DNA of 64,000 nucleotides. Source: an uncultured Clostridia bacterium (lineage in GTDB: Bacteria > CAYTYR01 > UBA6262). Positions 1 through 61,267 of this stretch are shown here, piece by piece. Within the stretch, counting starts at the first letter, position 1; every line of letters begins with the position of its first letter. The DNA lies in NCBI GenBank assembly GCA_964441745.1, contig CAYTYR010000005.1:1-64000 (forward strand), given 5' to 3'. Both the position numbers and the translations under genes were made by a program. The notes below the pieces were generated by a model. It saw only the letters and a program-made list of their open reading frames with translations. It was not told where the DNA came from and did not search any database.

Positions 1-79
1 TTTGCTGGAAAAGTCTTAGGAGAACAGGTGTCACCCTGCCTGCCGGCAGGCAGGGATTTCTAAAGGAGATTACACAGAT

Positions 80-1219
80 TTGAATATTGCTTTTATTACC
101 AGGTCTTATAATAAAAAGGGCGGGGTTTCCCGCTGTGTAGTGGAACTGGCGGAAAGATTCTGCCGGGAGCACCAGGTACATATTTTCACCAGCCAATGGG
201 ATGAGTCACTGGTCAAAGAAAATATTGTTTTCCATAAAATTAAAATATGGCCTGGACCTTTGTTCCTGGAAGTCCTCAGTTTTAGCATTTTTTGCCGGCT
301 GGCCTTGAAAGAGCAATTTTTTGACCTGGTTATTGGGCCGCTGGGAGATGTTTTTGGAGCTGATATCCTGGTAGCTCACAGCTGCCATCGGGCCTGGGTG
401 GAAATGAAAAAGAAAGATCCGTTAGAACATTTGAAATACTGGCTTAATCCCTTTCACCGGGTAGCGCTCTTGCTGGAAAAAAAAGCCCTGCAGCCAGGCC
501 AGTATCGTAAAATAATCAGTATTTCCCAACTCACTCGGAAAGACCTGCTCAAGTATTATCATCTGCCGGAGGAAGATATAACCGTTATTTATAATGGGGT
601 CAATGTTGAGGAATTTACGCCTGGCAACCGGAATGAGCTCAGGCAGGAGTTGAGAAAAGAGCTGGGTTTTTGCGCTGATGATATTGTCTTGCTTTTTGCC
701 GCTAACGAATTTAAGCGAAAAGGATTAAGAGCACTGCTGGAGGCAGTGGCCTTGCCTATGCAAAGTGCCCGGATTAAACTGCTGATCTTAGGCGGTGATA
801 GTCCGCTGCCATACCGTAATTTGATTCAGAAACTGGGCATTGTTGAACAGACGCGTTTTCTGGGGTCGCATAATGATATGCCCAGATATTACGCGGCCAG
901 TGATATATTTATCTTGCCGACGCAATTAGAGCCGTTCGGCCTGGTTATTACCGAAGCCATGGCCAGCGGCTTGCCAGTCATTACCAGCCGGTTGGCCGGA
1001 GCGGCGGAATTGATCACAGATGGGGAAACAGGATTATTATTGCAGAATCCTGAAAATCGCGGCGAATTACAGGATAAAATACTTAAATTGGTCAGAGATG
1101 CTGATTTTCGCAATAAACTGGGAACTAATGCCGCAGCAGCAATGCAGCAATATTCCTGGGAAAAAGTGAAAACAAAATACGAGCAAGTATGCCTGGATGA
1201 GAAAGGAAGGGCGGGGTGA
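80..1219 (+). CDS. Glycosyltransferase family 4 (WaaG/RfaG-like)
   Basis: N-terminal GGVSR motif, RKGL, EPFGLVITEAMASGLPVI GT-B signature; TTG start after GGAG. Confidence 0.9.
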   Translation: MNIAFITRSYNKKGGVSRCVVELAERFCREHQVHIFTSQWDESLVKENIVFHKIKIWPGPLFLEVLSFSIFCRLALKEQFFDLVIGPLGDVFGADILVAHSCHRAWVEMKKKDPLEHLKYWLNPFHRVALLLEKKALQPGQYRKIISISQLTRKDLLKYYHLPEEDITVIYNGVNVEEFTPGNRNELRQELRKELGFCADDIVLLFAANEFKRKGLRALLEAVALPMQSARIKLLILGGDSPLPYRNLIQKLGIVEQTRFLGSHNDMPRYYAASDIFILPTQLEPFGLVITEAMASGLPVITSRLAGAAELITDGETGLLLQNPENRGELQDKILKLVRDADFRNKLGTNAAAAMQQYSWEKVKTKYEQVCLDEKGRAG

Positions 1220-2406
1220 ATATTTGCATTTTTACCAGGACAACTTTAGCGCATAGCATTGGCGGTATGGAAGTCCATACCAATTTATTAGCTAATGGTT
1301 TAGTGCAACAAGGCCATCTGGTAACCATTATCACTACTGGTCATAAAGACGGCAAGCTCTCAGAAACTATTGATGGCGTGGTTATTCATTATATCTCCGG
1401 GACCAAGCCAGGCAAGTATTCACGGAAATGGTATCGCCAAAGCCGGGAAAAATTTATGGAATTACATCAACAGCGCTTTTTTGATATTGTCTGCAGTGAA
1501 AGCGCCGGGGCCTTTGGTTTACTGAAATCTGCTCTGTCTAGGAAAACCGGGATTCCAGTAGTGGTTATTTTCCACGGTATTTTTTATAACGAGCTTAAAA
1601 CCCGGTTCAATCTGGGATTTAGCCTGAAATCCCTGGCTGCCGCAGTATATTACCTGGGTACATATATTTTCCGGGACATGAGCTTGGTTGCCCGGGCCAA
1701 AGCGATCATTGCTACCAGCCATGAACAAAAACATTTAATCAAAAAGTTTTATTTCCTGCCGGAAAATAAAGTATTTACCGTTCTTAACGGTATTGACACA
1801 AAAATAGCGCCGGCAGACGACAGCCTGAAAAAGAATTTAGGCTTTGCTGCTGATGATAAGGTCATACTAAGTGTAGCCAGGCTAAAAAGAGAAAAAGGAT
1901 TGCATGTTATTTTACAGGCTCTGCCAGAGATCCTGGTAGATGTGCCTAAGGCTAAATTATTGATCATCGGTGAAGGGGAATACCGGGGATATTTGGAAGG
2001 GCTGGCCAATGACTTGGGACTACTCGGAAAGGTACTCTTTATCGGTGCTCTGCCCTATGCGGAATTAGGTAAATATTTCCATTTGGCTGATGTTTTCGTC
2101 AATTCTACGATCAGGGAAAACGGGTATGACTTGACTATCATCCAGGGCATGGCTTATGGTAAGCCAGTAGTTGTTTCCAGGTTGAAATCTTTAAATGGTG
2201 TTATTGACGATGGCAAAAATGGATTTCTGGTTGCCCGGGGAGAGGCTAAAGAATTAAGCCAGGCCGTAAGAAAAGTCTTACAAAATCCACAACTGATGAT
2301 GACCATAGGGAAAGCAGCACAGCAGCAAGCGCAGGATTTGTTTAGCGTAGAAAATATGGTGAAAAATACGATCAAGGTATTTGAAAAATGTATATCCATA
2401 AAATAA
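1216..2406 (+). CDS. Glycosyltransferase family 4
   Basis: GGME N-terminal motif, VARLKREKG, ENGYDLTIIQGMAYGKPVV (variant EX7E motif). Confidence 0.88.
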   Translation: MNICIFTRTTLAHSIGGMEVHTNLLANGLVQQGHLVTIITTGHKDGKLSETIDGVVIHYISGTKPGKYSRKWYRQSREKFMELHQQRFFDIVCSESAGAFGLLKSALSRKTGIPVVVIFHGIFYNELKTRFNLGFSLKSLAAAVYYLGTYIFRDMSLVARAKAIIATSHEQKHLIKKFYFLPENKVFTVLNGIDTKIAPADDSLKKNLGFAADDKVILSVARLKREKGLHVILQALPEILVDVPKAKLLIIGEGEYRGYLEGLANDLGLLGKVLFIGALPYAELGKYFHLADVFVNSTIRENGYDLTIIQGMAYGKPVVVSRLKSLNGVIDDGKNGFLVARGEAKELSQAVRKVLQNPQLMMTIGKAAQQQAQDLFSVENMVKNTIKVFEKCISIK

Positions 2407-10566: not shown

Positions 10567-11994
10567 ATGCCAAACAAAAGGATCCCTGTATATCTAAAAA
10601 TCCTGGCTTTGCTGATAGATGGTATTATTATCTATCTGGCTTTCTATCTGGCTTTCTGGATAAGATTTTATTCAGGATATATGATCCCTGATAAAGGCAT
10701 CCCTTCTTTGACACTCTACACGCAGGCTTTTGGGGTAATTACTTTGGTTAGTCTGCTGGCGTTTAAAATAAACGGATTATATATTTTAAAAGATAGGTTT
10801 TCATTAGATGAGTTTCCGGATATACTTAAAGCAGTCACTGTTTCCGCTATCATTGTTATGGCAGTGACCTTTTTATACCGGCAGTTTACTTTTTCCCGGA
10901 TCGTTCTTTTGTTGGGTTGGTTTATTAATATTGTTCTTATTTCCATATGGAGATCTGCCTATAGTCGATTCCGCCGGTATTTAAAGTATAAGTTAAGCGG
11001 CATCAAAAAAGTATTGCTCGTAGGAGCCGGCCGGCTAGCTAAGGAAATTTACCAGATCGTACAAGCTGACCAGCAGATTGAATATAAAATAGTAGGAATA
11101 GTAAATTACCCGAAGATCGAGCGAAAAGACTGGAGTGAGTTTAAAAACATTCCAGTTTTTGAGGGAATTGAAAACCTGAGTGAAATTATCCAAAAACTGC
11201 AGATCAATGAGATCATTATGACCAAATTGCCGGAAGCCAGCGGGCAAATGCTGGACATTATCACCCAAGCTGAGAAAACCGGAGTGGAATTTAAGATCAT
11301 CCCGGATGTGCTAGGGCTCATTACTACCCGCAGTACCTTAGATAGTATTTTTGGCTTACCGGTATTGACGCTGAAAAAAATTAAATTACGCGGAGTGAAT
11401 GCTCTATTTAAAAGAAGCCTGGATATTATTATCTCAGCTGGTCTTTTAGCGATAATTGCGCTTCCTATGCTCATTATAGCGATCATTATTAAACTGGATT
11501 CTTCCGGCCCGGTTTTTTACCGGCACCCGCGTATGGGCTACAAAGGTAATTCTTTTGAGTTTTTGAAATTTCGCAGTATGGTCGCAGATGCTGATGACCG
11601 GCTCAAGGATGTGATCCATTTGAATGAGAGGAAAGGGCCTGTTTTTAAAATGAAGAATGATCCCCGCATCACTAAATTCGGTAGATTTATCCGCCATTAT
11701 AGCCTGGATGAATTACCACAATTTATTAATGTATTAAAAGGGGACATGAGTATTGTCGGGCCACGGCCACAGGTACTCTGGGAAGCTTCCCATTATGATG
11801 AATGGGCCAAGCGCCGCCTGATGGTCCTGCCTGGTATCACTGGCTTATGGCAGGTCAGTGGCCGGAGCAACCTGAGCTATGAAGAAATGATCAAGCTGGA
11901 TATCTATTACATTGAAAACTGGTCCTTATGGCTGGATATAGAAATAATTTTGCAAACTATACCCACGGTTTTGTTTGCCAGGGGAGCATATTAG
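10567..11994 (+). CDS. Undecaprenyl-phosphate glycosylphosphotransferase (WcaJ/WbaP-like priming transferase)
   Basis: N-terminal TM helices, KRSLDI, KFRSM, DPRIT, SLDELPQFINVLKGDMSIVGPRP, PGITGLWQVSGR; start uncertain (10537-10567). Confidence 0.92.
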   Translation: MPNKRIPVYLKILALLIDGIIIYLAFYLAFWIRFYSGYMIPDKGIPSLTLYTQAFGVITLVSLLAFKINGLYILKDRFSLDEFPDILKAVTVSAIIVMAVTFLYRQFTFSRIVLLLGWFINIVLISIWRSAYSRFRRYLKYKLSGIKKVLLVGAGRLAKEIYQIVQADQQIEYKIVGIVNYPKIERKDWSEFKNIPVFEGIENLSEIIQKLQINEIIMTKLPEASGQMLDIITQAEKTGVEFKIIPDVLGLITTRSTLDSIFGLPVLTLKKIKLRGVNALFKRSLDIIISAGLLAIIALPMLIIAIIIKLDSSGPVFYRHPRMGYKGNSFEFLKFRSMVADADDRLKDVIHLNERKGPVFKMKNDPRITKFGRFIRHYSLDELPQFINVLKGDMSIVGPRPQVLWEASHYDEWAKRRLMVLPGITGLWQVSGRSNLSYEEMIKLDIYYIENWSLWLDIEIILQTIPTVLFARGAY

Positions 11995-12051
11995 GAGCAG
12001 CGTTCAGCGTATAGCGTACAGCGTTCAGAAAAACTATTTGGGAGGAATTAG

Positions 12052-12984
12052 TTGAAAATCTTAGTCACTGGCGGAGCGGGATTCATAGGTTCAAATATAA
12101 CAGACGCTTATATTTCAGCCGGACACAAGGTGGTCATAATTGACAACCTTTCTTCCGGTAAATTACATAATGTTAACAAAAAAGCTAAATTCTATCAGGC
12201 TGATATCAGGGATGCTAAAAAGATCAGTGAAATATTCAAGCGGGAGAGATTTGATATCGTTAATCACCACGCGGCGCAGATTGATGTGCGCAAATCAGTC
12301 CTGGATCCTGTCTTTGACGCCCAGGTTAATATTCTTGGGACACTTAACCTGTTGGAAAATTGCGTTAAATATAAAGTAAAAAAGTTCATCTTTGCCTCCA
12401 GCGGCGGGGTAATGTATGGTGAGTGCGGGAAAACTCCGCCGCCGGAAACAGTGCCGGCCAATCCGTTATCACCATATGGCGTTACCAAGCACACTACTGA
12501 AGTTTATCTGAATTATTATGCTGTTACCTATGGTTTGAAATATCTTATTTTCCGTTATGGCAATGTTTATGGCCCAAGGCAGGATCCGCATGGGGAAGCA
12601 GGCGTGGTGGCGATATTTATCCAGCGGATAATCAGTAATACTGAAATAAATATTTTCGGTAACGGAGAACAGTTGCGTGACTATGTTTTTGTCGGCGATG
12701 TGGTCCGGGCCAATTTGCTTGGGTTGAAAAAAGGTGTCAATACGATAATTAATATTGGTACCCAGAAAGCTTCAAGTGTAAATACCCTGTATGATGAATT
12801 ATCAACCATTACTGGCTATGACCTGAAAGCTGTCTATAAACCGCCACGGCTGGGAGAATTGCAAAAGAGTTTCCTGAATACGGCCAAAGCGAAGAAATTG
12901 CTTGGCTGGCAGTCAGAAGTCAGTTTTAAGGAAGGGTTAGCCAAAACAGTAGATTATTTTAAAGAAAACAGTTTTAAGTTATAA
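12052..12984 (+). CDS. UDP-glucose 4-epimerase-like extended SDR
   Basis: TGGAGFIGS, HHAAQIDVRKS, YGVTK (YxxxK), NVYGPRQDPHGEAGVV. Confidence 0.9.
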   Translation: MKILVTGGAGFIGSNITDAYISAGHKVVIIDNLSSGKLHNVNKKAKFYQADIRDAKKISEIFKRERFDIVNHHAAQIDVRKSVLDPVFDAQVNILGTLNLLENCVKYKVKKFIFASSGGVMYGECGKTPPPETVPANPLSPYGVTKHTTEVYLNYYAVTYGLKYLIFRYGNVYGPRQDPHGEAGVVAIFIQRIISNTEINIFGNGEQLRDYVFVGDVVRANLLGLKKGVNTIINIGTQKASSVNTLYDELSTITGYDLKAVYKPPRLGELQKSFLNTAKAKKLLGWQSEVSFKEGLAKTVDYFKENSFKL

Positions 12985-12988
12985 GTTA

Positions 12989-13036
12989 TCCCCTGCTGAT
13001 TTGTCTTAAAGGACAAATCAAAAACGCGGGGACAGG
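12989..13036 (-). repeat. CCTG+hairpin micro-element (long TCCCC...GGGGA-CAGG type) inserted in a heptamer array
   Basis: TCCCC...GGGGACAGG with an internal GATTTGTC/GACAAATC stem; the flanks rejoin as GTTA|TAA. Confidence 0.7.
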
Positions 13037-13117
13037 TAAGTTTTGAGTTAATGTAAAAAGATTTTCACCATAATTTAAAACTCAACACTCAAAATTGATT
13101 TATTCTTGGGGGTTCCC

Positions 13118-15707: not shown

Positions 15708-16748
15708 ATGAAGGCAATGGTGATGGCAGCTGGTGTGGGGACACGATTGCGGCCGCTGACACATTTTATACCTAAACCGATGATTCCTATCGTCAATAAA
15801 CCGGCGCTTGAGCATACCTTGGACCTGCTCAAGAAGCATGGTTTTGACGAAGTGGTCATTAATCTGCATTCATATCCGGAAATGATCAAAAATTATTTTA
15901 AAGATGGACAGCACTATGGGATCAAAATCCATTATTCGCTGGAGAAAACACTACTGGGGACCGCTGGAGGAGTAAAAAAAGCCGAGAAATGTTTTGATGA
16001 TACTTTCGTGGTGATGAGCGGTGATGGCCTTACTGATATTGATCTAACCCGGGTGCTGGAGTTCCATAAAAAGAAAAAATCATTGGCGACTATGGTTTTA
16101 AAGAAAGTAGATTCACGTTTTGACTATGGCGTGACCTTGATCGATCGACATAATCGGATTAAGAAATTTATTGAAAAACCTGCGTGGAGCGATGTTTTTG
16201 CCAATACCGTAAATACTGGTATTTATTTTTTTGAAACGGAAATATTTAACTATATTCCAAAAGAAAAATTCTTTGATTTTGGCCGGGATGTTTGGCCTTT
16301 ACTGCTGGGTAAGAAAAAACCGATCTTTGGTTTTGAAATGAATTCCTACTGGTGTGATATCGGGAATCTGCAAGAGTATAAACGGGCTGAGAAGAATGCC
16401 CTGGAAGGGGCGGTAAAAGTAAAGATCCCCGGCAAGATTAAGAAGAAAAATATCTGGGTGGGTGAGAATACTTTTATTCATCCTCAGGTAAAAATTTCCG
16501 GGCCGGTAGTGATCGGTAGTAACTGCCAAATAGAAAAAGGAGTAACCATAAACAGCTTCACTACGATCGGAAATAATAATATAATTGAAGAAGGAGCAGT
16601 ACTCAGTGATTGTATCCTCTGGTCAGGGGTGCAAGTGTCCAAGGGAGTACATCTGCGGAATTGCGTGATCGGCAATCAAGCCAAGATCAGTGAGAATATC
16701 TCTGTTTTTGAAGGTTCAGTCATTAACATAGATGAGAAAAAAACATAA
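15708..16748 (+). CDS. Second NDP-sugar pyrophosphorylase (M1P guanylyltransferase-like) with LbH tail
   Basis: AAGVGTRLRP, PKPMIP, LGTAGG, FIEKP, VNTGIY, FDFG, YWCDIG. Confidence 0.88.
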   Translation: MKAMVMAAGVGTRLRPLTHFIPKPMIPIVNKPALEHTLDLLKKHGFDEVVINLHSYPEMIKNYFKDGQHYGIKIHYSLEKTLLGTAGGVKKAEKCFDDTFVVMSGDGLTDIDLTRVLEFHKKKKSLATMVLKKVDSRFDYGVTLIDRHNRIKKFIEKPAWSDVFANTVNTGIYFFETEIFNYIPKEKFFDFGRDVWPLLLGKKKPIFGFEMNSYWCDIGNLQEYKRAEKNALEGAVKVKIPGKIKKKNIWVGENTFIHPQVKISGPVVIGSNCQIEKGVTINSFTTIGNNNIIEEGAVLSDCILWSGVQVSKGVHLRNCVIGNQAKISENISVFEGSVINIDEKKT

Positions 16749-16753
16749 AAGCA

Positions 16754-16853
16754 GATTACACCGATTAGAAAGAAAGATTACACCGATTATAAGCTTTTAA
16801 AATCTGTGTAATCCCTGTCCGCCTCTGGCGGATCTTTGGAAATCTGTGTAATC
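16754..16853. repeat. Inverted GATTACACCGATT/AATCTGTGTAATC repeat block with a CCTG+hairpin insert (16814-16832)
   Basis: Two forward and two reverse-complement units; CCTGTCCGCCTCTGGCGGA inside. Confidence 0.85.
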
Positions 16854-16875
16854 GCAATTAAAAGGGAGGAAGAGA

Positions 16876-18081
16876 ATGTTTAAGAGGGATTTTGTTTTTA
16901 CCAGTGAAAGCGTAACTGAAGGTCATCCAGACAAGGTCTGCGACCAGATCTCCGATGCCGTGGTGGATGAGATTTACCGTTTGGACCCGCCCAACAAAAA
17001 TAATTTTCACAGCCGGGTAGCATGTGAAACATTTATTACCGTGGGCTTGGTGATCGTTGGCGGCGAGATCACTACAACGGCTTATGTGGATTTGCCGCAA
17101 TTGGTCCGCGGGGTCATCAAGGATATAGGATATACAGACGTAAAATATGGTTTTAATTATGAAACTTGCGCTGTTCTTAACGCCATTGGTAAGCAATCCC
17201 CGGATATAGCCCAGGGGGTAGGGCGCAAAGGCAAAGTGATTGGCGCCGGTGACCAGGGACTGATGATCGGTTATGCTTGCAATGAAACCCCGGAACTGAT
17301 GCCTATGCCGATTATGCTGGCGCACAGCCTTTCCAGGAGATTAGCTGAAGTCAGGAAGAAAAAGATCCTGTCTTACTTGGGCCCTGATGGCAAATCCCAG
17401 GTAACAGTACGGTATGAAGATAAGAAACCGGTAGCAGTTGATAAGATCGTGATCTCCAGCCAGCATACAGAAGAAGCATTAGATAAGAAAACTGATAATA
17501 TGGCTAATTGGGCTAAGGAAGAGATCATTGAATCGATCATTAAACCGATTATCCCTGCCCGTTTAATGAAAAATTTTAACTGGAAAAAAGATTGTTTCAT
17601 TAACCCTACCGGCAGGTTCCTGGTCGGTGGACCGCAGTCAGATACTGGTATGACCGGAAGAAAAATAATTGTCGATACCTATGGCGGAATGGCTGCCCAT
17701 GGCGGTGGCGCGTTCTCCGGCAAAGATGCTACCAAAGTTGACCGCAGCGCAACCTATATGGCCCGCTACATCGCTAAAAACGTGGTAGCCAGCGGTTTAG
17801 CTGAAAGATGTACGGTCCAATTAGCTTACGCTATCGGGGTCCCCGAACCAGTCAGTGTCATGGTCGACACCATGGGGACAAGTACGGTCGATGAAGCCAA
17901 GATTGAAAAAGCCGTGATCAAGAACTTCCGCCTGGATCCTCGCGGCATAATTGATTCTCTGGAACTATACAAACCAATCTTCCGGAAAACCGCCAGTTAT
18001 GGCCATTTTGGCCGTTCTGAGAGCGAGTTTACCTGGGAACGGACTGATAAGGCTGAAGCGATCAGGAAAGACGCTAAGTAA
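16876..18081 (+). CDS. metK: S-adenosylmethionine synthetase
   Basis: [37 protein letters not shown]. Confidence 0.97.
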
Positions 18082-18092
18082 TTAAAAATGAA

Positions 18093-18135
18093 TCCCCTCT
18101 GTTTTTACAGACACAAAACTGGCAGGGGGGACAGG
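18093..18135 (-). repeat. CCTG+hairpin micro-element (long type)
   Basis: TCCCCTCTGTTTTTACAGACACAAAACTGGCAGGGGGGACAGG, closely similar to 54931-54971. Confidence 0.75.
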
Positions 18136-18150
18136 CACAGATTAAAATAA

Positions 18151-19428
<1,278 letters not shown>

Positions 19429-19545
19429 AACAGCTTATGGCGGATAGCGTATAGCGTATAGCGAAAAACTGAAAAACTGGTTTACAATTTAAGCGTTTTT
19501 GTGATATAGAGGTGAAGGAAGTTAATTTAGGTGAGGGAGGCTGTT

Positions 19546-20517
19546 ATGTCTGGTAGAGGCAAATTAGTTGCTATCTTTCTTGTGTTAGCGATGGTATTCA
19601 GCTTAGCTGGGTGCAGTAAGACTACTAATATCTTCGGTTGGACGCATAAGGGAGGCAGTGATACCAGCTCCGAATCACTGCTATCAGATGGCCAAGCAGC
19701 TTTGAATAGCGAAGACTACAATGATGCTTTGACCTATTATAACGATATTTTGAGCCAGGACTCGGATAACTCTGAAGCCTTATATGGAAAAGCCCAGGCC
19801 CTGATCGGGTTAGGTGGATTAAATTTAGCGGAACTGATCGCTGAGGTAATTAAAGACACCGCTTTAGATGATAATTCACCAGTGATTGCCAATAATGAAC
19901 TTGGCGTTTTTTTCAGCAGGACCAAGCACACTTCTGCTTCTGAGGATCTCCTGCCAGAGTCTTTGGATCTGCCGCAGCTGTATGAGACAGCTAAAGCAGT
20001 AGTGCCAATATTAAAACTAATTGCTGACGGTAATAGCGATGGCGTTATCCCGGCTGACGATCCTGATGTCAATATTAACCTGGCTTTTTTTATCACTATC
20101 CAGGCAGTATGCCGTTTATTGGACGATAATAATGACTTAGTCCCCGGTGGTAACGGCGATCTGGTACAGGTGCTGAATTCTGACGGTGATTGGACTGTTT
20201 CCCTGCCGGATGCCAGTACTATACCTGTTACCAGCAGCGATCCAACCGTGACAACGCAAAGTACTCTGCGCGATCAGGTCCAGCAAGCTATTGATGATGA
20301 ATTTGGTATTGCCTTGACCACTTTAGGAGCTATGAATTATCTGGAAAAAGCGATCAATAAAGTCAAGGCCAAAGATGACTCAGCGCTCATGGATCTTTGG
20401 AATAATTTTGATGACTTAAAACTAAGCATTAAGGACCAGATTGATACTAATGTTAATCCGAAGATGGATGCTTCCATCGCAGATATAGTCTGGCAGCCGC
20501 ATGCTTCGCTACTATAA
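19546..20517 (+). CDS. Acidic TPR-containing lipoprotein
   Basis: Signal peptide with lipobox LAGC; TPR-like AL..EDYNDAL..Y...EALYGKAQA; start after GGGAGG. Confidence 0.65.
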   Translation: MSGRGKLVAIFLVLAMVFSLAGCSKTTNIFGWTHKGGSDTSSESLLSDGQAALNSEDYNDALTYYNDILSQDSDNSEALYGKAQALIGLGGLNLAELIAEVIKDTALDDNSPVIANNELGVFFSRTKHTSASEDLLPESLDLPQLYETAKAVVPILKLIADGNSDGVIPADDPDVNINLAFFITIQAVCRLLDDNNDLVPGGNGDLVQVLNSDGDWTVSLPDASTIPVTSSDPTVTTQSTLRDQVQQAIDDEFGIALTTLGAMNYLEKAINKVKAKDDSALMDLWNNFDDLKLSIKDQIDTNVNPKMDASIADIVWQPHASLL

Positions 20518-20531
20518 AGAGGAGGGATACA

Positions 20532-21740
20532 ATGACTACTTTTAAACGGTTACTATTGTTGTTGGCGCTTAGCCTGCTTATCCTTCCCGTACTGGCCTGG
20601 GGCGCAGACAGCGCTTTTATGATCAAAGGGATCAGGCCGGTTGGTATGGGTGGGGCGTTTATCGCTATCGCTGATGATGCCAATGCTTATTTTTATAATC
20701 CGGCCGGTATTACCCAAATACAAAAATGGCAGCTGCAAATTGCCAGTTTGCCGATAACGGTTAGCAATGACACCAAGGAGCTGTATGACTGGTGGAGTGA
20801 AAATGACAGCGAACTTGAAAATTTTGATGAACAAAGTTATGAAACCCAAGTCAGGTTGATCAATGATATTACGGACCAGGTTTCTAAGCTAAAGGTCCAT
20901 TTATCCACTAGTTTATTGAACCCTAATTTTATTTCCGGCCCAATTGGCCTCAGGAATAATTTAAAGTTAAATTTCGGTGTTGGCCTTTATAGCTTGATTG
21001 ATGTCCGCATCGGGATGAATAATGGCCTGCTTGTTCCCAATGTGGATATGATCGGCAATATTGATGTGGTTGGCATGGCTCCGGTTGCGTTCAAAATGGA
21101 GAAAACGCCTTTTGACCTGCCTGGTTCTTTGTCCTTAGCCGGTACGATCAAACTACTTCGCCGGGGCAGGATCGAAGAATTAAGAAAATCAGTGCTGGAA
21201 TTTGATGAGTTTGACCCGGCAATTCAATATGGCGCCGGCGTTGGCCTGGATTTCGGAACTCTCTATCAGCTGAATGAACAATGGAATTTTGGTTTAATGG
21301 TAGCTGATATCTTCGGCACTCCGGTCACGTACGACCAAATCACTTCTAACAATATCATCAAACCGGAAACCACTGATGTCATCAATCCCCGGGTTAATGT
21401 TGGAGTAGCGTTCCGGCCAAAAAATTTATATTATTGGAAGAATAAATTCCTGCCCTTAAAGAATCACTGGGTTCTGGCTGCTGATGTTAATGATCTTACT
21501 AATACTGATGAGGACCTCTTTGGGGCTTCTTTCTTTAAGAAGTTGCACCTTGGCGCTGAATATCAGACTAAAATGTTGTCTATACGTGGCGGGTTTAATT
21601 CCGGCTACCCGACTTTTGGCTTAGGTCTGGATTTATGGCTGCTCAATCTGGATTATGCTTTCTATGGCGAAGAACTTGGGATTTATGCCGGCCAGATCGT
21701 TGCCTGGAACCATATGGTAGCTTTGTCTATTGGCTTCTAA
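20532..21740 (+). CDS. Outer-membrane beta-barrel, TraF/PorV/FadL-like superfamily
   Basis: Signal peptide, GIRPVGMGGAFIAIADDANAYFYNPAG N-terminal motif, amphipathic strands, terminal Phe. Confidence 0.75.
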   Translation: MTTFKRLLLLLALSLLILPVLAWGADSAFMIKGIRPVGMGGAFIAIADDANAYFYNPAGITQIQKWQLQIASLPITVSNDTKELYDWWSENDSELENFDEQSYETQVRLINDITDQVSKLKVHLSTSLLNPNFISGPIGLRNNLKLNFGVGLYSLIDVRIGMNNGLLVPNVDMIGNIDVVGMAPVAFKMEKTPFDLPGSLSLAGTIKLLRRGRIEELRKSVLEFDEFDPAIQYGAGVGLDFGTLYQLNEQWNFGLMVADIFGTPVTYDQITSNNIIKPETTDVINPRVNVGVAFRPKNLYYWKNKFLPLKNHWVLAADVNDLTNTDEDLFGASFFKKLHLGAEYQTKMLSIRGGFNSGYPTFGLGLDLWLLNLDYAFYGEELGIYAGQIVAWNHMVALSIGF

Positions 21741-21789
21741 GGAGATTGATTATTGTGATTAAAATAAATAATTTATAGAATATTAGATA

Positions 21790-21822
21790 GGCCGTTCCGA
21801 TATGATCGGAACGGTCTTTCTA
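21790..21822 (+). terminator. Possible intrinsic terminator
   Basis: GGCCGTTCCGAT-ATG-ATCGGAACGGTC stem followed by TTTCTATT. Confidence 0.4.
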
Positions 21823-21837
21823 TTATGGGAGACCCTC

Positions 21838-23568
21838 TTGAAAAAACTTTTTTTTGTTCTTTTGATTTTTCTTTTACTCGCGACGCACGACGCACGACGC
21901 ACGGCGTTATTTGCTGCTCCCCCGCATCCGTTGATTTACGATACTGGCCCATTATCGCCGGAAATTCAGGCTTTGGTTACCAAGCCACGGATCGCTGTGC
22001 CTAACATGCCTGCTGAATATGTATCCAGCAGGGCAATTACTACCGGGACAGCGAGAGTAGCGGCAATCCTGATAGAATTTACAGATGTCACGGCTTCGGC
22101 TGCCCATTCCAAGACCTATTTTGATAATATGCTATTTAGCCAGAATACAGGAAACAACAGTTTATATGATTATTTCAAAGAGGTCAGTGAGTCACAACTT
22201 GCTGTAACCGGAACCACCGGCGCTCGCTGGTATAAAAGCAGCCGGAGTATGAGCTATTACGGGGCCGATGGTTCAGGAGGAGTGGATACCTATTATACTG
22301 ATATCTCTAATCTGGTCATTGAAGCTGTACAGCAAGCAGATGCTGATATCAATTTTGCCCAGTATGATCTTGATGGTGACGGCATTGTGAATCATGTGAT
22401 CATTGTGCATGCCGGGTACGGGCAGGAAGATACAGGTGATACTGATAATATCTGGTCGCACAGCGGTTCTTTTACCGTGACCAGCGGTGGTATCACTGAT
22501 CCAAATGGATACCTGACCAATGACGGGGTGCATGTCAAAAACTATACGATGATGAGCGAATATTCTAAAGTCGGGACCTTTGTTCATGAATTCGGACATG
22601 ACCTGGGATTACCTGACCTGTATAATACCCAGAGTATTGGCGGGACTACAGTGGTCGGGAATTGGGACCTGATGGATGGTGGATCGTGGTTGGGCCCTGG
22701 CCAGGATGGTACTCGTCCGGCTCATATTGGGGCCTGGGGTAAGCAATATCTGGATTGGGTAACGCCAATTGCGCTTGACCAGCAGGAAACAGCAGTTCCT
22801 GTTCACCCCAGCGGGACACAGAGTGTTTACAAGATCCCGCTAGCGACAGCTGATGATCCTCTGAAAGAGTATTTTCTGGTGGAATACCGCCGCAAAGCGA
22901 ATTTTGACCAGTACTTGCCTGGAGAAGGTTTGTTGTTTTGGCACATTGATGACGCCATGCTTGATTATGAAACCTCTGATTCTTTGGGCAATACTGGCAC
23001 AGCTTTAGATTTGAATGTAGTCAATTCGGAACCATATGTCCCGCATCGCGCTGTAGACCTGGTAGAAGCAGATAATACTGATAAGACCAGTGAAGCCAGC
23101 GACCCGTTCCCGGGGACGAGGGGCATCACTAGTTTTGCCAGCCCTAATAATGATCCCTACAGCCAAAATTCATCCCCATTCACTATTCTCAATATCAGCA
23201 ATGCCGGTGGTAGTTCTATGACTTTTGATATTTACCAGGCAGTGTTTACCATAGCGCCGGATATTACTGATGTTTATAGCTATCCTAATCCCAGCGCTAC
23301 CGGCCAGGTCAAGCTGAAGATTATCACTACCAACCTGGTGGAAACCAAAAACATCGAGCTGAAAATATATGATGTCAGCGGAGAACTGATCCGGGAAGCG
23401 AAAAGCGGGGAGATCAGCCAGGTGGCTATCTCTGACAATAAAGCTGAGTATGAGTATGCGTGGGATGCCAAAAATGAAAACAGAGAAAAAGTAGCCAGCG
23501 GAATTTATCTTTACTGGTTTAAAGCGGATAATAAGGAAAAGGTTGGCAAAGTAGCGATTATAAGATAG
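21838..23568 (+). CDS. Secreted M6-family (immune inhibitor A-like) metalloprotease with C-terminal FlgD-Ig/T9SS-CTD-like domain
   Basis: HEFGHDLGLPDLY zinc motif, DLDGDGIVNHVIIVHAG, WDLMDGGSW, EYFLVEYR; tail YSYPNP...LKIYDVSGELIR...WDAKNENREKVASGIYLY...KVAIIR; TTG start after GGAG. Confidence 0.88.
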   Translation: MKKLFFVLLIFLLLATHDARRTALFAAPPHPLIYDTGPLSPEIQALVTKPRIAVPNMPAEYVSSRAITTGTARVAAILIEFTDVTASAAHSKTYFDNMLFSQNTGNNSLYDYFKEVSESQLAVTGTTGARWYKSSRSMSYYGADGSGGVDTYYTDISNLVIEAVQQADADINFAQYDLDGDGIVNHVIIVHAGYGQEDTGDTDNIWSHSGSFTVTSGGITDPNGYLTNDGVHVKNYTMMSEYSKVGTFVHEFGHDLGLPDLYNTQSIGGTTVVGNWDLMDGGSWLGPGQDGTRPAHIGAWGKQYLDWVTPIALDQQETAVPVHPSGTQSVYKIPLATADDPLKEYFLVEYRRKANFDQYLPGEGLLFWHIDDAMLDYETSDSLGNTGTALDLNVVNSEPYVPHRAVDLVEADNTDKTSEASDPFPGTRGITSFASPNNDPYSQNSSPFTILNISNAGGSSMTFDIYQAVFTIAPDITDVYSYPNPSATGQVKLKIITTNLVETKNIELKIYDVSGELIREAKSGEISQVAISDNKAEYEYAWDAKNENREKVASGIYLYWFKADNKEKVGKVAIIR

Positions 23569-23576
23569 TGATTGTT

Positions 23577-24665
23577 TTATTTTCTTACTTTCTTTACCAG
23601 CAGCCAGACGCCGATACTGCCGAAGGTTAGGTTAGAGAGCCAGGCTGCCAATATTGGGGTTAAGATTTTATTCTCACCCAGAGCGTGTCCAATCTCCAGC
23701 GTCCCCCAGAAAACAAAGGCGATAGCCATTCCTGTGCCAAAATTCATGACTTTACTGGATTGTTTAGTCCACAGGGCAAAAGGTATCCCGATCAGCAAGG
23801 TTACCAAATTGGCAAAAGGGTAAGAAAATTTAAGGGCCAGTTCCACTTGTTCCTTGTTGGCTGGGATCCCATTTTTGCGGAGTCGGATGATATAATCTTT
23901 AAGTTCCCGGTAATCCATTTCAGTGGACTTTTTAGCTTCCCGCAGGAAATCGCCAGGATCTTCCGGCAAGATAGGATTTATTCTTTCAAATTTTTCTTCT
24001 TTGATAATATTTTTTCCCTGCTGGTCAAATTCCCGAATAATCCCATTGTTGAATACCCATTGGGTATCCTGCCACTGCCCTGATTTAGCTACAATTTGCT
24101 TCACTAAGTTGTGGGTACTATTAAATTCATCGATTTGCAAATCTTTCATGATGCTGTGCTGCCCGTCAAAAGACTTGATAAAATAAATACGGTTGTTTTG
24201 GCCCAGATGAATGACATTGTTACGCTGTAAATAATCTAGTCCTTCTTCATGGCGGATCTTGTGCTTCTCATATAATTTTGCCTTGTATTCCAGCGGTGAA
24301 GCCAGGATTTCATTAAAAAAGAAAGTTAAACCGCTGAGGATGGCGGTAAAGAGAAACAGGGGCAATAAGATACGATAGATGCTTAACCCGGAAGCTTTCA
24401 TGGCGGTGAGCTCATTATAACGGAGCATGTTGCTGAGAGAAAACAGGGTAGCTAATAACGTCGCTACAGGCATTACCTGTACTAGCCAGAAGGGCAAGCG
24501 GTATAATAAATAGATAATAATTTTGTTAGGCGGGGTTTTGTAGTTCAAAAAAGTGTCTATCTTGTCAAAAAACTGGGAGATCAGTACGATCAGGGCAAAG
24601 CAGCTGATGGCAAAGAGAAAAGCCTGCCCGTATTGTTTTAATACATAACGATCTGCTATTTTCAC
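23577..24665 (-). CDS. lptG: LPS export ABC permease LptG
   Basis: IADRYV start, NELTAMKASGLS, periplasmic beta-jellyroll region, LAAWL. Confidence 0.85.
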   Translation of the reverse strand: MKIADRYVLKQYGQAFLFAISCFALIVLISQFFDKIDTFLNYKTPPNKIIIYLLYRLPFWLVQVMPVATLLATLFSLSNMLRYNELTAMKASGLSIYRILLPLFLFTAILSGLTFFFNEILASPLEYKAKLYEKHKIRHEEGLDYLQRNNVIHLGQNNRIYFIKSFDGQHSIMKDLQIDEFNSTHNLVKQIVAKSGQWQDTQWVFNNGIIREFDQQGKNIIKEEKFERINPILPEDPGDFLREAKKSTEMDYRELKDYIIRLRKNGIPANKEQVELALKFSYPFANLVTLLIGIPFALWTKQSSKVMNFGTGMAIAFVFWGTLEIGHALGENKILTPILAAWLSNLTFGSIGVWLLVKKVRK

Positions 24666-35945: not shown

Positions 35946-35950
35946 GTGAC

Positions 35951-36406: not shown

Positions 36407-38137
36407 ATGGAAAAAAATGAAGAGAACCTGCAAGCATTAAGACATTCCGCATCACATGTAATGGCCCAGGCAGTTAAAGAACTGTACCCTGAGGTAAAAC
36501 TGGCCATTGGCCCAGCTATTGCTGATGGTTTCTACTATGATTTTGACAAGAAAGAACCCTTCACTCCGGAAGACCTCGAAAAAATCTCCCAAAAAATGAA
36601 AGAAATCGTCAAACAAAATCTCAAATTCGAGCATTATGAAAAATCCCGCGCCGAAGCTATCAAATATTTCCAGGATAAAGGCGAAAAATACAAAGTAGAA
36701 CTCATCAACGACCTGCCTGACGAGAATATGTCATTTTATAAACAGGGTGATTTTGTTGACCTGTGCAAAGGCCCGCATACCAACTATACCGGTGGCTTAA
36801 AACATTTCAAGTTGTTGAGCGTAGCAGCGGCCTATTGGCGCGGAAATGAAAAAAGAGAGAGCTTACAGCGCATATATGGTACCGTATTCTTTACCAAAGA
36901 AGAATTAGACGCCTACCTGAACCTGTTAGAGGAAGCCAAAGCGCGTGACCATCGTAAATTAGGCAAAGAGCTGGACCTGTTCAGTTTTCATGAAGAAGCT
37001 GGCCCGGGATTGGTTTTCTGGCATCCTAAAGGATCTTTGGTCCGCAAGGTCATAGAAGATTTCTGGAAAGATGAGCACCTGAAGAATGGTTACAATCTGC
37101 TCAATACGCCGCATATTGCTAACCTGAATATCTGGAAAACCAGCGGACATTGGAATTTCTACCGGGAGAGCATGTATTCCCCGATGGATATAGACGGCCA
37201 GGACTATATGATCAAGCCGATGAATTGCCCATTTCATATCCTGATCTATAAGACCCAATTGCGCAGTTACCGGGAGCTTCCTATCCGTTACGCGGAATTA
37301 GGGACAGTTTACCGCTATGAGCGCAGTGGCGCTTTGCACGGTTTGATGAGAGTGCGCGGGTTTACCCAGGATGATGCGCATATCTATTGCCGGTTGGACC
37401 AGTTGGAAAACGAGATCATTGATGTCATAAAATTTGTCCTGTTCATCTTGCAGACTTTCGGGTTTAAGGAATATGAAGTGTATGTCAGCACGAGACCGGA
37501 AAAGTATGCCGGTGAATTGGCGCATTGGGAAAAAGCCACTTCGGCGTTGGAAAATGCCCTTAAAGCTGTTGGTTTAACTTACCAGATAGATCCGGGTGAA
37601 GGAGTTTTTTACGGGCCGAAGATCGATATTAAGATCAAAGATTGCCTGAATCGTGCCTGGCAATGTTCCACTATCCAGGTGGATTTCAACTTACCTACCG
37701 CGTTTAAAGTAGAGTATATTAATGAAGAAAGCAAACCTGTGCAGCCAGTAATGATTCACCGCGCGCTGATGGGCTCCCTGGAACGTTTCTTTGGCGTATT
37801 GATCGAGCACTATAAAGGGGCTTTCCCGGTATGGCTCTGCCCGGTACAGGCCAAGGTACTCAATATTACTGACAGCCAGGAAGAATATGCTAAAAAAGTA
37901 TTTGCCCAGCTCAAGGAAAATGGTATCCGCGCTGAGCTGGATATTCGCAATGAAAAATTGGGTATGAAGATCAGGGAAGCGCAATTGGCTAAGATCCCTT
38001 ATATGCTGGTAGTAGGAGATAAAGAAAAAGAAAATGGTACGGTCACCCTGCGCCGGCGCAATAGCCAGGAACAAAAAGTCAGGCCTTTAGCTGATTTTAT
38101 CAGTTTGGCTCTAGAAGAGATCAAAAATAGGATATAA
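36407..38137 (+). CDS. thrS: Threonine--tRNA ligase (short form without N-terminal TGS domain)
   Basis: RHSASH, DLCKGPH, RDHRKLG, KPMNCP, RVRGFTQDD, FYGPK, MIHRA. Confidence 0.97.
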   Translation: MEKNEENLQALRHSASHVMAQAVKELYPEVKLAIGPAIADGFYYDFDKKEPFTPEDLEKISQKMKEIVKQNLKFEHYEKSRAEAIKYFQDKGEKYKVELINDLPDENMSFYKQGDFVDLCKGPHTNYTGGLKHFKLLSVAAAYWRGNEKRESLQRIYGTVFFTKEELDAYLNLLEEAKARDHRKLGKELDLFSFHEEAGPGLVFWHPKGSLVRKVIEDFWKDEHLKNGYNLLNTPHIANLNIWKTSGHWNFYRESMYSPMDIDGQDYMIKPMNCPFHILIYKTQLRSYRELPIRYAELGTVYRYERSGALHGLMRVRGFTQDDAHIYCRLDQLENEIIDVIKFVLFILQTFGFKEYEVYVSTRPEKYAGELAHWEKATSALENALKAVGLTYQIDPGEGVFYGPKIDIKIKDCLNRAWQCSTIQVDFNLPTAFKVEYINEESKPVQPVMIHRALMGSLERFFGVLIEHYKGAFPVWLCPVQAKVLNITDSQEEYAKKVFAQLKENGIRAELDIRNEKLGMKIREAQLAKIPYMLVVGDKEKENGTVTLRRRNSQEQKVRPLADFISLALEEIKNRI

Positions 38138-42326: not shown

Positions 42327-42387
42327 GATTACCCGCCAAAAAGCGCCGGCGGGCACAGCACAGATTTAAAGAGCGATTACACAGATT
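42327..42387. repeat. GATTACACAGATT repeats with a hairpin insert
   Basis: Near copy of 34417-34462. Confidence 0.85.
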
Positions 42388-53110: not shown

Positions 53111-53233
53111 TTTATATGAAAATAAAGGGCTTGAAGCTGACCCGAACGCCACTGGTCCGAGTGAGGGCAGCCGGCTTCGGAGGAAGCCGCTGAAATAGCG
53201 GCTGGGGGAGAAGAAGTCCCACCTCCGGCATTT
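53094..53233 (+). repeat. 20-bp direct repeat of the tRNA-Leu 3' end around a 100-bp structured spacer
   Basis: AAGTCCCACCTCCGGCATTT at 53094-53113 and 53214-53233. Confidence 0.9.
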
Positions 53234-53399
53234 TTGATCTCTGAAAACAGGTATTTTACAGCTGCAAACCCGTCTTTTTGGCTGCGCCAGCTTCATTTGC
53301 TCCTAACTTATCCCGGTGTTGATAAGCGTCGTCGCTCATTCATTGGCTCGCTCAAAAATACAAGTTTTCGCTGTGTAAAATACTGTTATCAGAGATCAA
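53234..53399. mobile_element. MITE-like element with long imperfect terminal inverted repeats
   Basis: TTGATCTCTGAAAACAGGTATTTTACA ... TGTAAAATACTGTTATCAGAGATCAA; no credible ORF. Confidence 0.55.
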
Positions 53400-54851: not shown

Positions 54852-54930
54852 AAACCTTGATAGCTTGAAAATATATTGTACAACAATATAGACGGATACT
54901 GTGACTTCCAGCTAAAATAGGAGAGGGTGA

Positions 54931-54971
54931 TCCCCCTAGTTTTACAAGGCAAAACTGGCAGGGGGGACAGG
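54931..54971 (-). repeat. CCTG+hairpin micro-element (long type)
   Basis: TCCCCCTAGTTTTACAAGGCAAAACTGGCAGGGGGGACAGG, homologous to 18093-18135. Confidence 0.75.
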
Positions 54972-55184
54972 CAGTGAGGGCCTAACCTTGTTAGCTTGAA
55001 AAAACGTGACTGATGTGGCTCCGCCCAAAGGGGTGACCCGCCACTAAAGAGCGTTGGCGGGCAGGCAGCGAAGGTTGCCAAGAACGATTGAAAACACGAT
55101 AAACATAACAACCGAGCACCATCAGGGGAAAAGAAAGTTTTCCCCTATGGGGAGGAGAAGGTAGTTAATTTTAGCCGACATAAC

Positions 55185-59375: not shown

Positions 59376-60413
59376 GTGAAAAAGCTAATAAAAGGTAATG
59401 AAGCTCTGGGTGAAGGCGCCATTCAAGCTGGCTGCGGCGCTTATTTTGGCTATCCTATTACGCCGCAAAATGAGCTGATAGAATATATGTCCCGCCGGAT
59501 GCTGGAAGAAAAACGCGTTTTTGTCCAATCAGAAAGCGAGTTAGCAGCCATTAATATGGTGTTTGGTGCCAGCGTGGCCGGAGCCAGAGCCATGACTTCA
59601 TCATCTTCGCCTGGTATCAGCCTGAAACAGGAAGGCATTTCTTATATGGCTGGCTGCGAATTACCCGGGCTGATAGTAAATGTGCAACGGGGAGGCCCGG
59701 GGTTGGGCAATATTTCCGGCTCACAGGGTGACTATTTTCAGGCAGTGAAAGGCGGGGGGCATGGGGATTACCATCTGCTTGTGTTCACTCCGGGATCAGT
59801 GCAGGAAATGTACGAAATGCCGGCTTTAGCCTTCACTTTAAGCGAAAAATACCGTACTCCAGCGATGATCTTGACTGATGGGATCTTGGCCCAAATGCAG
59901 GAACCGATGGAAATGGTAAAAATTGATGCTTCCAGGTTTAAAGACCGGAACTGGATCTTAGATGGCTGCAAAGGGCGGACGCCGCGAAAAATCAGGTCGT
60001 TATTTATGGAAGAAGGAGTTTTAGAAGCTCATAATCAGCATTTACAAAGCAAATATGAAGAAATTAAAAAACAGGAGCAGAGATACCAGTTAATTAATGA
60101 ACAGGCTGAGATCATGCTTGTCGCTTATGGCATCAGCGCCCGGATTGGCTATACAGCTTTAGAGGATGCCAATAAAAAAGGATTTAAAGTTGGATTGCTA
60201 AGGCCACAAATGGTTTGGCCGTTCCCGGAAAAGATACTAAGAGAACTGGCTCCAAAAGTAAAGGCTTTCCTGGTAATAGAACTGAATGCCGGCCAGATGG
60301 TAGAGGATGTCAAGCTATCGGTCAATGGAAAAACCCCGGTTCATTTTTACGGCCGGTCTGGCGGTGGCTGTATCACTCCAGAAGAAGTGCTAAAGGAAAT
60401 TGAAAAAATATGA
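59376..60413 (+). CDS. 2-oxoacid:ferredoxin oxidoreductase alpha subunit (VorB-like)
   Basis: [31 protein letters not shown]. Confidence 0.9.
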
Positions 60414-61156
60414 AAAAATTATTTTGTAAACCAGAAAGTCTCACTGACACAGACCATAAATATTGTCCCGGTTGCGGGCATGGCATTGTGCACCGCCTGG
60501 TGGCCGAAGTTATTGATGAATTAGGTGTCCGGGAAAAAACTGTTGGTATAGCCCCGGTAGGTTGCGCGGTGTTCGCTTATGATTATTGGAATTTTGATGT
60601 AACTGAAGCTGCTCATGGCCGTCCGCCGGCGGTGGCTACCGGGATCAAAAGAGTTTTACCAGACCGGGTAGTCTTCACCTATCAAGGGGACGGGGATCTG
60701 GCGGCCATAGGGATGGCTGAAACTGTTCATGCCGCTAACCGCGGGGAGAATATTACCGTAATTTTTATCAATAATGCTATCTACGGCATGACGAATGGAC
60801 AAATGGCGCCAACCAGTTTGTTAGGCATGAAAACTAGTACTTCGCCATTTGGCCGGGATGAAAAAATTGCCGGGTATCCCATTAAAGTCGGCGAATTACT
60901 GGCCACCTTGGAGGGTACTACTTATTTGGCCCGCTGTGCCGTAGATTCAGCAAAACATGTATCGGAAGCCAAGAAAGCAATAAAAAAAGCTTTCGAGGTG
61001 CAATTAGCAGGAAACGGTTATTCTATGGTGGAGATACTATCACAATGTCCTCCTAACTGGAAAATGTCAGTACCTGAATCTTTGGAGTATGTACGGAAAG
61101 AAATGATGGCTCAGTTCCCGCTTGGCGTGATTAAAGACAAAACTAAGATATCCTAA
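60410..61156 (+). CDS. 2-oxoacid:ferredoxin oxidoreductase beta (TPP-binding) subunit
   Basis: [16 protein letters not shown]...[13 protein letters not shown]. Confidence 0.92.
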
Positions 61157-61267
61157 AAAGTCAGGATGTCTTGATTACCCGCCTTCCTACCGGCAGGCAG
61201 GGATTTCAAAAAACGATTACACCGATTACCTAAACATATAAAATAATATTACACTAGGATTAGAAAG

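Follow-up and report, generated by a model that had tools for sequence, protein, structure and literature searches.

Short CCTG-tagged hairpin elements in an uncultured bacterium, their precise presence or absence at orthologous sites, and two families shared across phyla

The DNA analysed here (the window) covers 64 kb from the start of contig C5 in the genome of an uncultured bacterium; the assembly comprises 2,069,592 bases in 39 contigs and is rated 98% complete. Its subject is a set of hairpin-forming elements of 15-48 nt, far too short to encode anything, which lie in the window along with decayed tRNA copies and a small free-standing GIY-YIG nuclease gene. The window has a GC content of 42-46% and a GC skew that is positive throughout. 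The host belongs to a phylum represented by nine species genomes in the collection surveyed, and its threonyl-tRNA synthetase is 64% identical to those of the closest named relatives. Since a photosystem I core (PsaA/PsaB) was not found in the genome, the host is not an oxygenic cyanobacterium.

A pattern search of the whole genome gave a catalogue of 114 hairpin copies in six families. Family A (18 copies) is a perfect palindrome, B (20 copies) reads CCTG-TCCGCC-nnn-GGCGGA, C (12 copies) reads CCTG-CCCGCC-N8-12-GGCGGG, and E (4 copies) reads CCTG-CCCCGA...TCGGGG. Family D (36 copies, CCTG-TCCCC...GGGGA) splits into a nested form of 48 nt, D1, and a form of 43 nt, D2. In family F (24 copies) the tag C[CT]G[CT]G replaces CCTG, with a stem that starts with CCC and an end in GGG. 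Families A to E have a 5'-CCTG-YCC start and a GGR-3' end in common. All 13 elements that a first, sequence-only reading had listed in the window were found at the coordinates it gave, each with the stem-loop it described. They are set out below with the features around them; here and in the text, a slash within a sequence marks the point of insertion.

35-54, no strand: family A, perfect 20-nt palindrome CCTGCCTGCCGGCAGGCAGG
12989-13036, minus strand: family D1, a nested hairpin of 48 nt whose CCTG tag is on the minus strand, within a heptamer array at GTTA/TAA
16814-16832, plus strand: family B, CCTGTCCGCCTCTGGCGGA, directly 3' of the host repeat AATCTGTGTAATC
18093-18135, minus strand: family D2, 43 nt
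31129-31143, no strand: short variant of A, CCTGCC-gca-GGCAGG, without a separate tag
33125-33144, no strand: family A, between GATTACACA and GATTAC
34422-34448, minus strand: family F, tag CCGCG, stem CCCGCC with GGCGGG, inside the host repeat at AATCTGTG/TAATC
34465-34483, minus strand: family B
35568-35685, plus strand: pseudo-tRNA-Cys copy that holds C (35593-35618), an untagged CCCGCC hairpin (35630-35651) and A (35658-35677), three hairpins in all
35593-35618, plus strand: family C, at AAGGGA/GCAG of the pseudo-tRNA-Cys
35658-35677, no strand: family A, in the T-loop region at CAAATC/CGCC, 25 nt upstream of the GIY-YIG start codon
35703-35945, plus strand: free-standing GIY-YIG nuclease gene, 80 aa (PF01541, 50.8 bits)
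36061-36086, plus strand: family C, lying within a second partial pseudo-tRNA-Cys (36049-36140), with an untagged hairpin after it (36098-36119)
36193-36222, plus strand: a pair of untagged hairpins of 15 nt each, TCAGCCAAAGGCTGA and TCCGCCTCTGACGGA, within the D-loop of a pseudo-tRNA-Val (36176-36263)
42332-42358, minus strand: family F, within the host repeat
54931-54971, minus strand: family D2, at GGGTGA/CAGTGA of a tRNA-leader-like element
55037-55065, minus strand: family C, at GGGGTGA/CAGCGA
61182-61201, no strand: degenerate copy of A, CCTTCCTACCGGCAGGCAGG

The double insert of TCAGCCAAAGGCTGA and TCCGCCTCTGACGGA recurs at two further loci of the genome.

The link between CCTG and hairpins, which had been proposed from the window, is seen genome-wide. 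In a census of perfect GC-rich hairpins (stem of at least 6 bp, loop of 3-12 nt), CCTG is the commonest 5' flank among 1534 hairpins, with 71 cases observed against 19.1 expected from tetramer frequency. Likewise, the genome has 77 CCTG-tagged hairpin starts as compared with 7, 12, 5, 6 and 9 in five first-order Markov shuffles, which hold half the genome's hairpin total. As a grammar for the repeats, CCTG plus hairpin describes the majority of the copies (families A to E) and not all of them, since family F carries a different tag and repeated hairpins without any tag are also present, for example TCCGCC-nnn-GGCGGA within AGTTTT/AAAACT, TCAGCC-nnn-GGCTGA and CCCGCCAACGTACTTTGGCGGG. Moreover, the stem itself includes the CCTG in family A and in the short variant at 31129-31143. 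Among 16 distinct copies of D1, both partners of five inner stem pairs have changed (for example TA and CG at one pair, or GC, CG and AT), which means that the hairpin is constrained or that the inner hairpin is itself exchangeable; D2 has fewer such paired changes. In an Rfam scan, only the six tRNAs reach the gathering score, and around the tRNA clusters no relevant match to the elements was found at E up to 1.

The elements of this genome are almost only intergenic: 19 of the 114 copies lie within any open reading frame (ORF) of at least 120 aa, and such ORFs make up 85% of the genome. They are mostly found at a 13-nt host repeat GATTACACNGATT, in tandem arrays of heptamers, in decayed tRNA copies or in tRNA leaders. 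B follows the AATC of the 13-nt host repeat AATCTGTGTAATC (the reverse strand of GATTACACAGATT) in 17 of its 20 copies, and about 21 of the 24 F copies stand at AATCTGTG/TAATC within the host repeat, where half of the D2 copies are found as well. D1 and half of family C lie within tandem heptamers, and the remaining copies occupy decayed tRNA copies and a leader-like element upstream of tRNAs. A preference for short repeats and tRNA-derived sequence, as suggested by the sequence-only reading, is also apparent in the distances to tRNA genes, with 11 of the 114 copies no more than 500 nt away against 1.4% of random positions, an enrichment that is overstated because the random positions include coding DNA.

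These sites are repeats in their own right. The core 12-mer of the host repeat occurs 104 times in the genome; the form GATTACAC[AC]GATT is found at window positions 68-80, 16754-16853 and 35318-35352 and at 10 more sites, in direct pairs spaced by about 22 nt and in intergenic inverted pairs. The same-genus relatives G002 and G004 carry a different version (GAATAACACGAATT or ATTCGAGTAATTCG) at orthologous sites, which suggests that the host repeat evolves in concert within each species. Heptamer arrays (TAGCGTA, AAATTCT, CGCTGAC, AAACTTA and others) are abundant genome-wide, in the window at 12975-13105 and 11994-12040, and recall the short tandem heptamers of heterocystous cyanobacteria, to which the host is unrelated. 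Upstream of tRNA or pseudo-tRNA genes lies a conserved element of about 130 nt (GGGGTGACAGCGA ... GGGGnAAA..TTTCCCC ...), present in the window at 35430-35565 and 54915-55184 and elsewhere at C1:171458-171570, near position 70828 of C6 and near position 3126 of C19. It is a recurrent insertion site for families C and D2 and has no Rfam match at E up to 1.

Comparison of filled and empty sites shows how exactly the elements come or go. The paralogous empty sites noticed in the window are real: GATTACACA/GATT, AAGGGA/GCAG and CAAATC/CGCC in tRNA-Cys, and GGGGTGA/CAGCG. Furthermore, orthologous loci in relatives of the same genus (G002 to G005, 74-91% identical to the source genome, G000, over syntenic stretches) show the clean presence or absence without target duplication that the sequence-only reading had put forward as a check. 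At window position 33157, G003 has a copy of B and G000 is empty, reading ...GAAAAAA/GATTACAC. At the two-armed locus 16749-16875, B stands in one arm in G000 and in the other arm in G003, each being empty where the other is filled. The D1 element at 12989 is absent at the orthologous site of G003. The C element at 35593 is absent from an otherwise identical pseudo-tRNA-Cys of G004 (both flanks identical at 15 of 15 positions), and G002 has at that locus the intact tRNA-Cys only, without the pseudo-copy. The C element at 55037 is absent from G002 (flanks identical at 15 of 15 and 13 of 15 positions), and an A-like copy of G002 is absent from G004. The A element at 33125 has a diverged copy in G003, its site being absent or not alignable in G002, G004 and G005. 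No target duplication was found at any clean orthologous presence/absence site.

A blind census of gaps of at least 12 nt between the window and three relatives listed 121, mostly in poorly aligned intergenic DNA. Six passed a filter for flanks identical at 13 or more of 15 positions on both sides, and one of these, at 35260, was dropped because of masked N bases in the G003 record. Three of the five real clean indels are hairpin elements and two are unrelated. Thus, the window holds non-coding micro-elements that were inserted or removed precisely and without target-site duplication.

Such a pattern could be mimicked without any dedicated transposition by gene conversion, slippage or recombination between host repeats or heptamer arrays. 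This account gains from the fixed repeat positions of most copies described above (B after AATC, F in the host repeat, D1 and C in heptamers) and from preferred flanks that differ between organisms, for example the loops of repetitive extragenic palindromic (REP) hairpins in some metagenome contigs. We nevertheless regard it as improbable, since inserts also occur in unique contexts without flanking homology (AAGGGA/GCAG of the pseudo-tRNA-Cys and GGGGTGA/CAGCG), the homology arms would be only about 13 nt long, one identical 19-mer has 66 distinct flank contexts, and identical sequences in unrelated phyla, which are described below, would be left unexplained.

The same comparisons bear on the view that the hairpins are not mobile and represent motifs kept by selection for a function, for instance as terminators, RNA-stability elements or protein-binding sites, or that they move as RNA copies. 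Intergenic placement, frequently just downstream of genes, stems maintained by paired changes and T-rich spacers after some B copies are all compatible with functional motifs. This explanation becomes very improbable, however, in the light of clean presence or absence at orthologous sites of species that are 80-87% identical, of insertions within decayed tRNA copies, of empty sites that keep the same T-rich spacer without the hairpin, and of the missing Rfam family match at E up to 1. Movement by RNA copies was set aside, as no RVT_1 reverse transcriptase was found in this genome at its 98% completeness.

Our survey of 401 genomes, 392 of them outside the host phylum, revealed that two of the families extend well beyond this lineage. 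With at most one mismatch, B is present in six of the nine species genomes of the phylum, including all five of the same genus, and was not found in the family's other genus or in the class's other family. Outside the phylum, it occurs in 10 of the 392 genomes, which belong to seven families (the reversed control matches 2 of 401), and the A palindrome occurs in 28, of which 17 have 2-30 copies (control, 5 of 401). The exact 19-mer of B was matched in at least 123 metagenome stretches, and the DNA was examined for 80 loci (181 kb), whose GC content ranges from 0.31 to 0.73; 79 copies could be scored for their flanks, and these account for the 66 distinct contexts. None of 87 foreign loci resembles the source genome by megablast, and on this ground, together with the wide GC range, mis-binning or contamination was rejected as the origin of the cross-phylum matches. 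In G015 and G041 (another phylum), B lies in a hairpin-laden pseudo-tRNA adjoining the intact tRNA, in G015 within the anticodon loop. Viral contigs gave no exact match to B, and the sequences of A and B were not found in the literature searched, supplements being outside that search.

At least families A and B are therefore not private to the lineage, the same sequences being found in unrelated phyla with unrelated flanks, and the recurrence of identical 19- and 20-nt elements in such settings implies that the machinery is conserved and transferable and reads a short sequence of defined composition. The finding is in this respect wider than the sequence-only reading saw, in that the family has at least two members common to several phyla. 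A high load of tagged hairpins appears to be a trait of this genus, as a 221-kb sample of G015 has no CCTG-tagged perfect hairpin and a 323-kb sample of G006 has 12, all unique and probably due to chance. Insertion into hairpin loops was considered as a general rule and applies only in part: a stem of at least 6 bp encloses B in 9 of the 79 metagenome copies, compared with 21 of 1600 control junctions, and in the source genome this holds for 1 of 114 elements. Some of the enclosing hairpins are GTAG-tagged REP hairpins. In the metagenome contigs L201, L185, L252, L209 and L216, from one group of organisms of 50-55% GC, B occupies the same position, TTTA/B/G, in the loops of several such hairpins.

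A candidate for the enzyme that could move the elements is encoded in the window itself, where the GIY-YIG gene stands between the pseudo-tRNA-Cys with its three hairpins and an intact tRNA-Cys, at a distance of 25 nt from an A element. In G002, gene and pseudo-tRNA-Cys are both absent. Clustering of elements beside GIY-YIG or Y1 genes had been proposed as a check, and the GIY-YIG genes give the stronger signal. Among 30 loci of homologues from many phyla, 26 have a tRNA gene within 400 nt, and a duplicated tRNA piece that holds a hairpin is frequent on one or both sides. The A palindrome lies within 450 nt of the GIY-YIG gene at 5 of the 30 loci, two of which represent other phyla, namely G391 (distances of 27 and 52 nt) and G015. 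Besides the window, A is also near homologues at two places in G003. Of the 80 metagenome B loci, 13 have tRNAs, five a GIY-YIG homologue within 1.5 kb and none a Y1 homologue. Moreover, of the 392 genomes from outside the phylum, 6 of 10 with B and 25 of 382 without B have a close GIY-YIG homologue (E of 1e-12 or better; p = 2.5e-5), as have 6 of 17 with at least two A copies against 25 of 375 (p = 1e-3), in tests that ignore kinship and habitat.

GIY-YIG genes of 80-110 aa are found beside tRNA genes in the window (35568-36140) and at L131, L133, L134, L136 and L301-L320, and the opposite side of the gene often has an incomplete copy of the same tRNA that is interrupted by hairpins. This arrangement looks like a mobile cassette directed at tRNA genes, of which it duplicates a part. 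From physical linkage and co-occurrence, we tentatively consider the small tRNA-associated GIY-YIG nuclease as the best candidate enzyme. It is more speculative that nuclease and CCTG hairpins represent one system, an analogue of REPs and their REP-associated tyrosine transposases (RAYTs) on a different enzyme fold, which spreads horizontally across bacterial phyla. In such a system, the nuclease might introduce nicks into DNA that is structured or single-stranded (tRNA-gene loops, hairpin loops and short repeats, for example), the hairpins of 15-48 nt would be the smallest known cargo placed precisely into such nicks, and the hairpin-laden pseudo-tRNA copies beside nuclease genes could be footprints of nuclease activity.

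The sequence-only reading had instead proposed a REP-like family linked to RAYT enzymes of the Y1 (HUH) type, with CCTG as a guide. IS200/IS605 transposases cut and rejoin DNA without target duplication. A RAYT or TIRYT enzyme of this fold could accordingly read tag plus hairpin on single-stranded DNA and mobilise REP-like elements by cutting and rejoining, and the architecture, a conserved tetranucleotide beside a hairpin and no duplication, fits. The genome has eight Y1_Tnp matches, none of them on contig C5, in line with the earlier remark that the window has no RAYT/TnpA gene. Four are proteins of 261-331 aa with a DnaA-like C-terminal helix-turn-helix, and the 315-aa protein among them, the one scanned, passes the NCBIfam cut-off for REP-associated tyrosine transposases (NF047646, 87.8 bits against 80). 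The 261-331-aa type is TIRYT, genes of which are described in PMC6006769 as flanked by inverted repeats with the consensus GGGG[AT][CG]A[CG] and without REPs nearby. The TIRYT genes of this genome are flanked by their own terminal inverted repeats (TIRs) of the GGGGTCAG type. At the gene ends these are tandemly reiterated, with up to five partial copies of AACAATGGGGTCA, and many solo TIRs are dispersed in the genome (TIR coordinates include C8:5327-6420, C1:192234-192434, C7:101142-101173 and C5:71629-71646). Two RAYT-like genes of 217-241 aa are flanked by a palindrome of their own, TTCCACCTACGCGGTGGAA, in eight copies, and form with it a small conventional REP-like system in the same genome; copies of the AACCGTCT-TTCCACCTACGCGGTGGAA-AAGAGGTT palindrome are mostly clustered near the gene on C8 (48-51 kb) and on C11 (40-44 kb).

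Several features of the elements themselves favour a Y1 enzyme. The D end GGGGACAG fits the TIRYT consensus as given in PMC6006769, and when D2 and its flank, GGGGACAGGCACAGATT, are compared with the local TIR GGGGTCAGGCACTGAAT, 14 of 17 positions agree. Relative to GC skew as a proxy for replication, families D (27 of 36 copies, p = 0.004) and F (18 of 24, p = 0.02) are strand-biased, and the 9 of 12 for C are not significant (p = 0.15). TIRYT is also enriched in genomes with two or more A copies (11 of 17 against 101 of 375). On the other hand, B (12 of 20) and A (11 of 18) have no strand bias, B does not track TIRYT homologues (4 of 10 B-positive against 108 of 382 B-negative outside genomes, p = 0.31), and no Y1 homologue accompanies B in the metagenome loci. 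The flanks of all eight Y1 matches hold repeats other than CCTG hairpins, and the nearest elements are 1.2-24 kb away, as expected from the random median of 7.5 kb. The tag is CCTG and not GTAG or CGTC (the REP tags given in PMC3733652), the hairpins are single and not doublets, and a CCTG-like motif is internal to the terminus in the TIR and terminal in the elements. Around the Y1 genes of the genome, no parent insertion sequence was found with ends that match the elements. The REP/RAYT mechanism and the role of CCTG as a guide are not supported as first stated, and the elements do not cluster beside Y1 genes. We view a Y1 enzyme of the RAYT/TIRYT type as a second, doubtful candidate, and the full account of REP-like elements mobilised by it as rather unlikely.

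Taken together, we favour, with a rough probability of 0.6, a reading of the elements as non-autonomous micro-elements with the grammar 5'-CCTG-YCC...hairpin...GGR-3' that are moved in trans by an enzyme whose existence we infer, and that behave like the small dispersed repeats (SDRs) of Nostoc. A conserved protein would recognise the tag and the stem base and move the elements in trans, and the element itself would probably form a hairpin as single-stranded DNA and enter a single-stranded target that is exposed or structured. Roughly speaking, more of the weight for the enzyme goes to the GIY-YIG nuclease than to Y1, and the remainder to something unseen or to recombination.

A number of observations weigh against this reading. 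CCTG is not universal among the hairpin repeats of the genome, and the empty 221-kb sample of G015 indicates that loads outside the genus can be very low. Presence or absence cannot separate gain from precise loss, and no insertion event was directly observed, as contigs from public runs break at repeats. Nine public sequencing runs are listed, two of them with most of the stretch and no RNA run among those listed; over window positions 16600-36500, four runs yielded only de Bruijn contigs, which stop at the repeats, and joints that lead to other copies of the repeats. As regards the nuclease, phylogeny and habitat are left out of account in the co-occurrence tests, and carriage of GIY-YIG and TIRYT is correlated (p = 0.03). 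Four B-positive genomes are without a close GIY-YIG homologue, one of them holding seven B copies, as are 11 of the 17 genomes with multiple A copies, and the presence of at least two A copies tracks TIRYT as well (p = 1.7e-3). The GIY-YIG link may be indirect because elements and gene both lie near tRNA genes, and GIY-YIG nucleases are, to our knowledge, not known to catalyse strand transfer.

Among known systems, the elements seem in behaviour closest to SDRs, rather than to REP/RAYT. SDRs were reportedly described by Elhai et al. in 2008 (Genome Res 18:1484) from Nostoc punctiforme and relatives. We know of no enzyme identified or proposed for them, and the enzyme is likewise not known for the elements studied here. 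Both consist of elements of a few tens of bases in several dissimilar families with a common hairpin kept by paired changes, and both are embedded in tandem heptamers or other short repeats by precise insertion without duplication. In contrast to SDRs, our elements carry a common CCTG tag, occur as identical copies across phyla and are linked to tRNA genes and a small GIY-YIG gene. They are set beside SDRs by description, and since their host, which lacks PsaA/PsaB and comes from a phylum of nine species genomes, lies outside Nostocaceae, they would be analogues of SDRs rather than members. According to PMC5861425, SDR-like repeats were found only in Nostocaceae among HIP1-rich cyanobacteria; SDRs are also discussed in another citing paper (PMC3116915).

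REPs are defined in PMC3733652 as palindromes tagged at one end by GTAG (or CGTC). Our elements resemble REP/REPIN-RAYT systems in several respects: they are short palindromes outside genes, carry a conserved tetranucleotide at one end, are non-autonomous and occur in many copies, in a genome that has RAYT-family genes. However, they differ in the tag (CCTG, or CYGYG in F), in their single hairpins, in showing no clustering with RAYT genes, which are flanked by other repeats, and in being identical across phyla instead of species-specific, with B even a guest inside some REPs; they are thus not members of REP/RAYT as defined. Miniature derivatives of IS200/IS605 ('peel and paste') are similar in the lack of target duplication, in hairpin dependence, in family-specific 5' flanks (AATC, CTGTG) and in the strand bias of D and F, whereas they have two subterminal hairpins and hundreds of nucleotides compared with one hairpin and 15-48 nt here, and our elements have no fixed target tetranucleotide across families or organisms. 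Classical miniature inverted-repeat transposable elements differ in that no target-site duplication is seen at the clean sites here. As for the nuclease, free-standing GIY-YIG homing endonucleases occur in tRNA gene clusters, for example SegB of T-even phages (PMC13096335). These share with our genes the small GIY-YIG gene among tRNA genes, here with local tRNA duplications beside it; the genes here differ in being bacterial and chromosomal, with 80-110 aa and without a DNA-binding domain. Among the matches listed, free-standing GIY-YIG genes at tRNA genes were phage and organelle cases only, and no description of a GIY-YIG link to dispersed micro-hairpins was found in the literature searched.

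How very small repeats move is a long-standing open question. Even for REPs, for which the enzyme is known, we are aware of no demonstration of transposition in cells. Our analysis offers two concrete and small candidate enzymes, the 80-aa GIY-YIG protein and the 315-aa TIRYT, and, if true, an enzyme that places a defined 19-nt hairpin scarlessly would be of mechanistic as well as practical interest. The elements also matter for annotation, as they interrupt tRNA-like sequences and fragment short-read assemblies, with public contigs ending at them.

Finally, the window carries a 134-nt insert at 53111-53244, directly 3' of tRNA-Leu(CAA), which ends in a second copy of the last 15 nt of the tRNA, GTCCCACCTCCGGCA, and is absent from G004. 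In G002, G003 and G004, comparable inserts lie after tRNA-Gly and carry a duplicate of its 3' end. The insert at tRNA-Leu is a different small element, one that duplicates its target.

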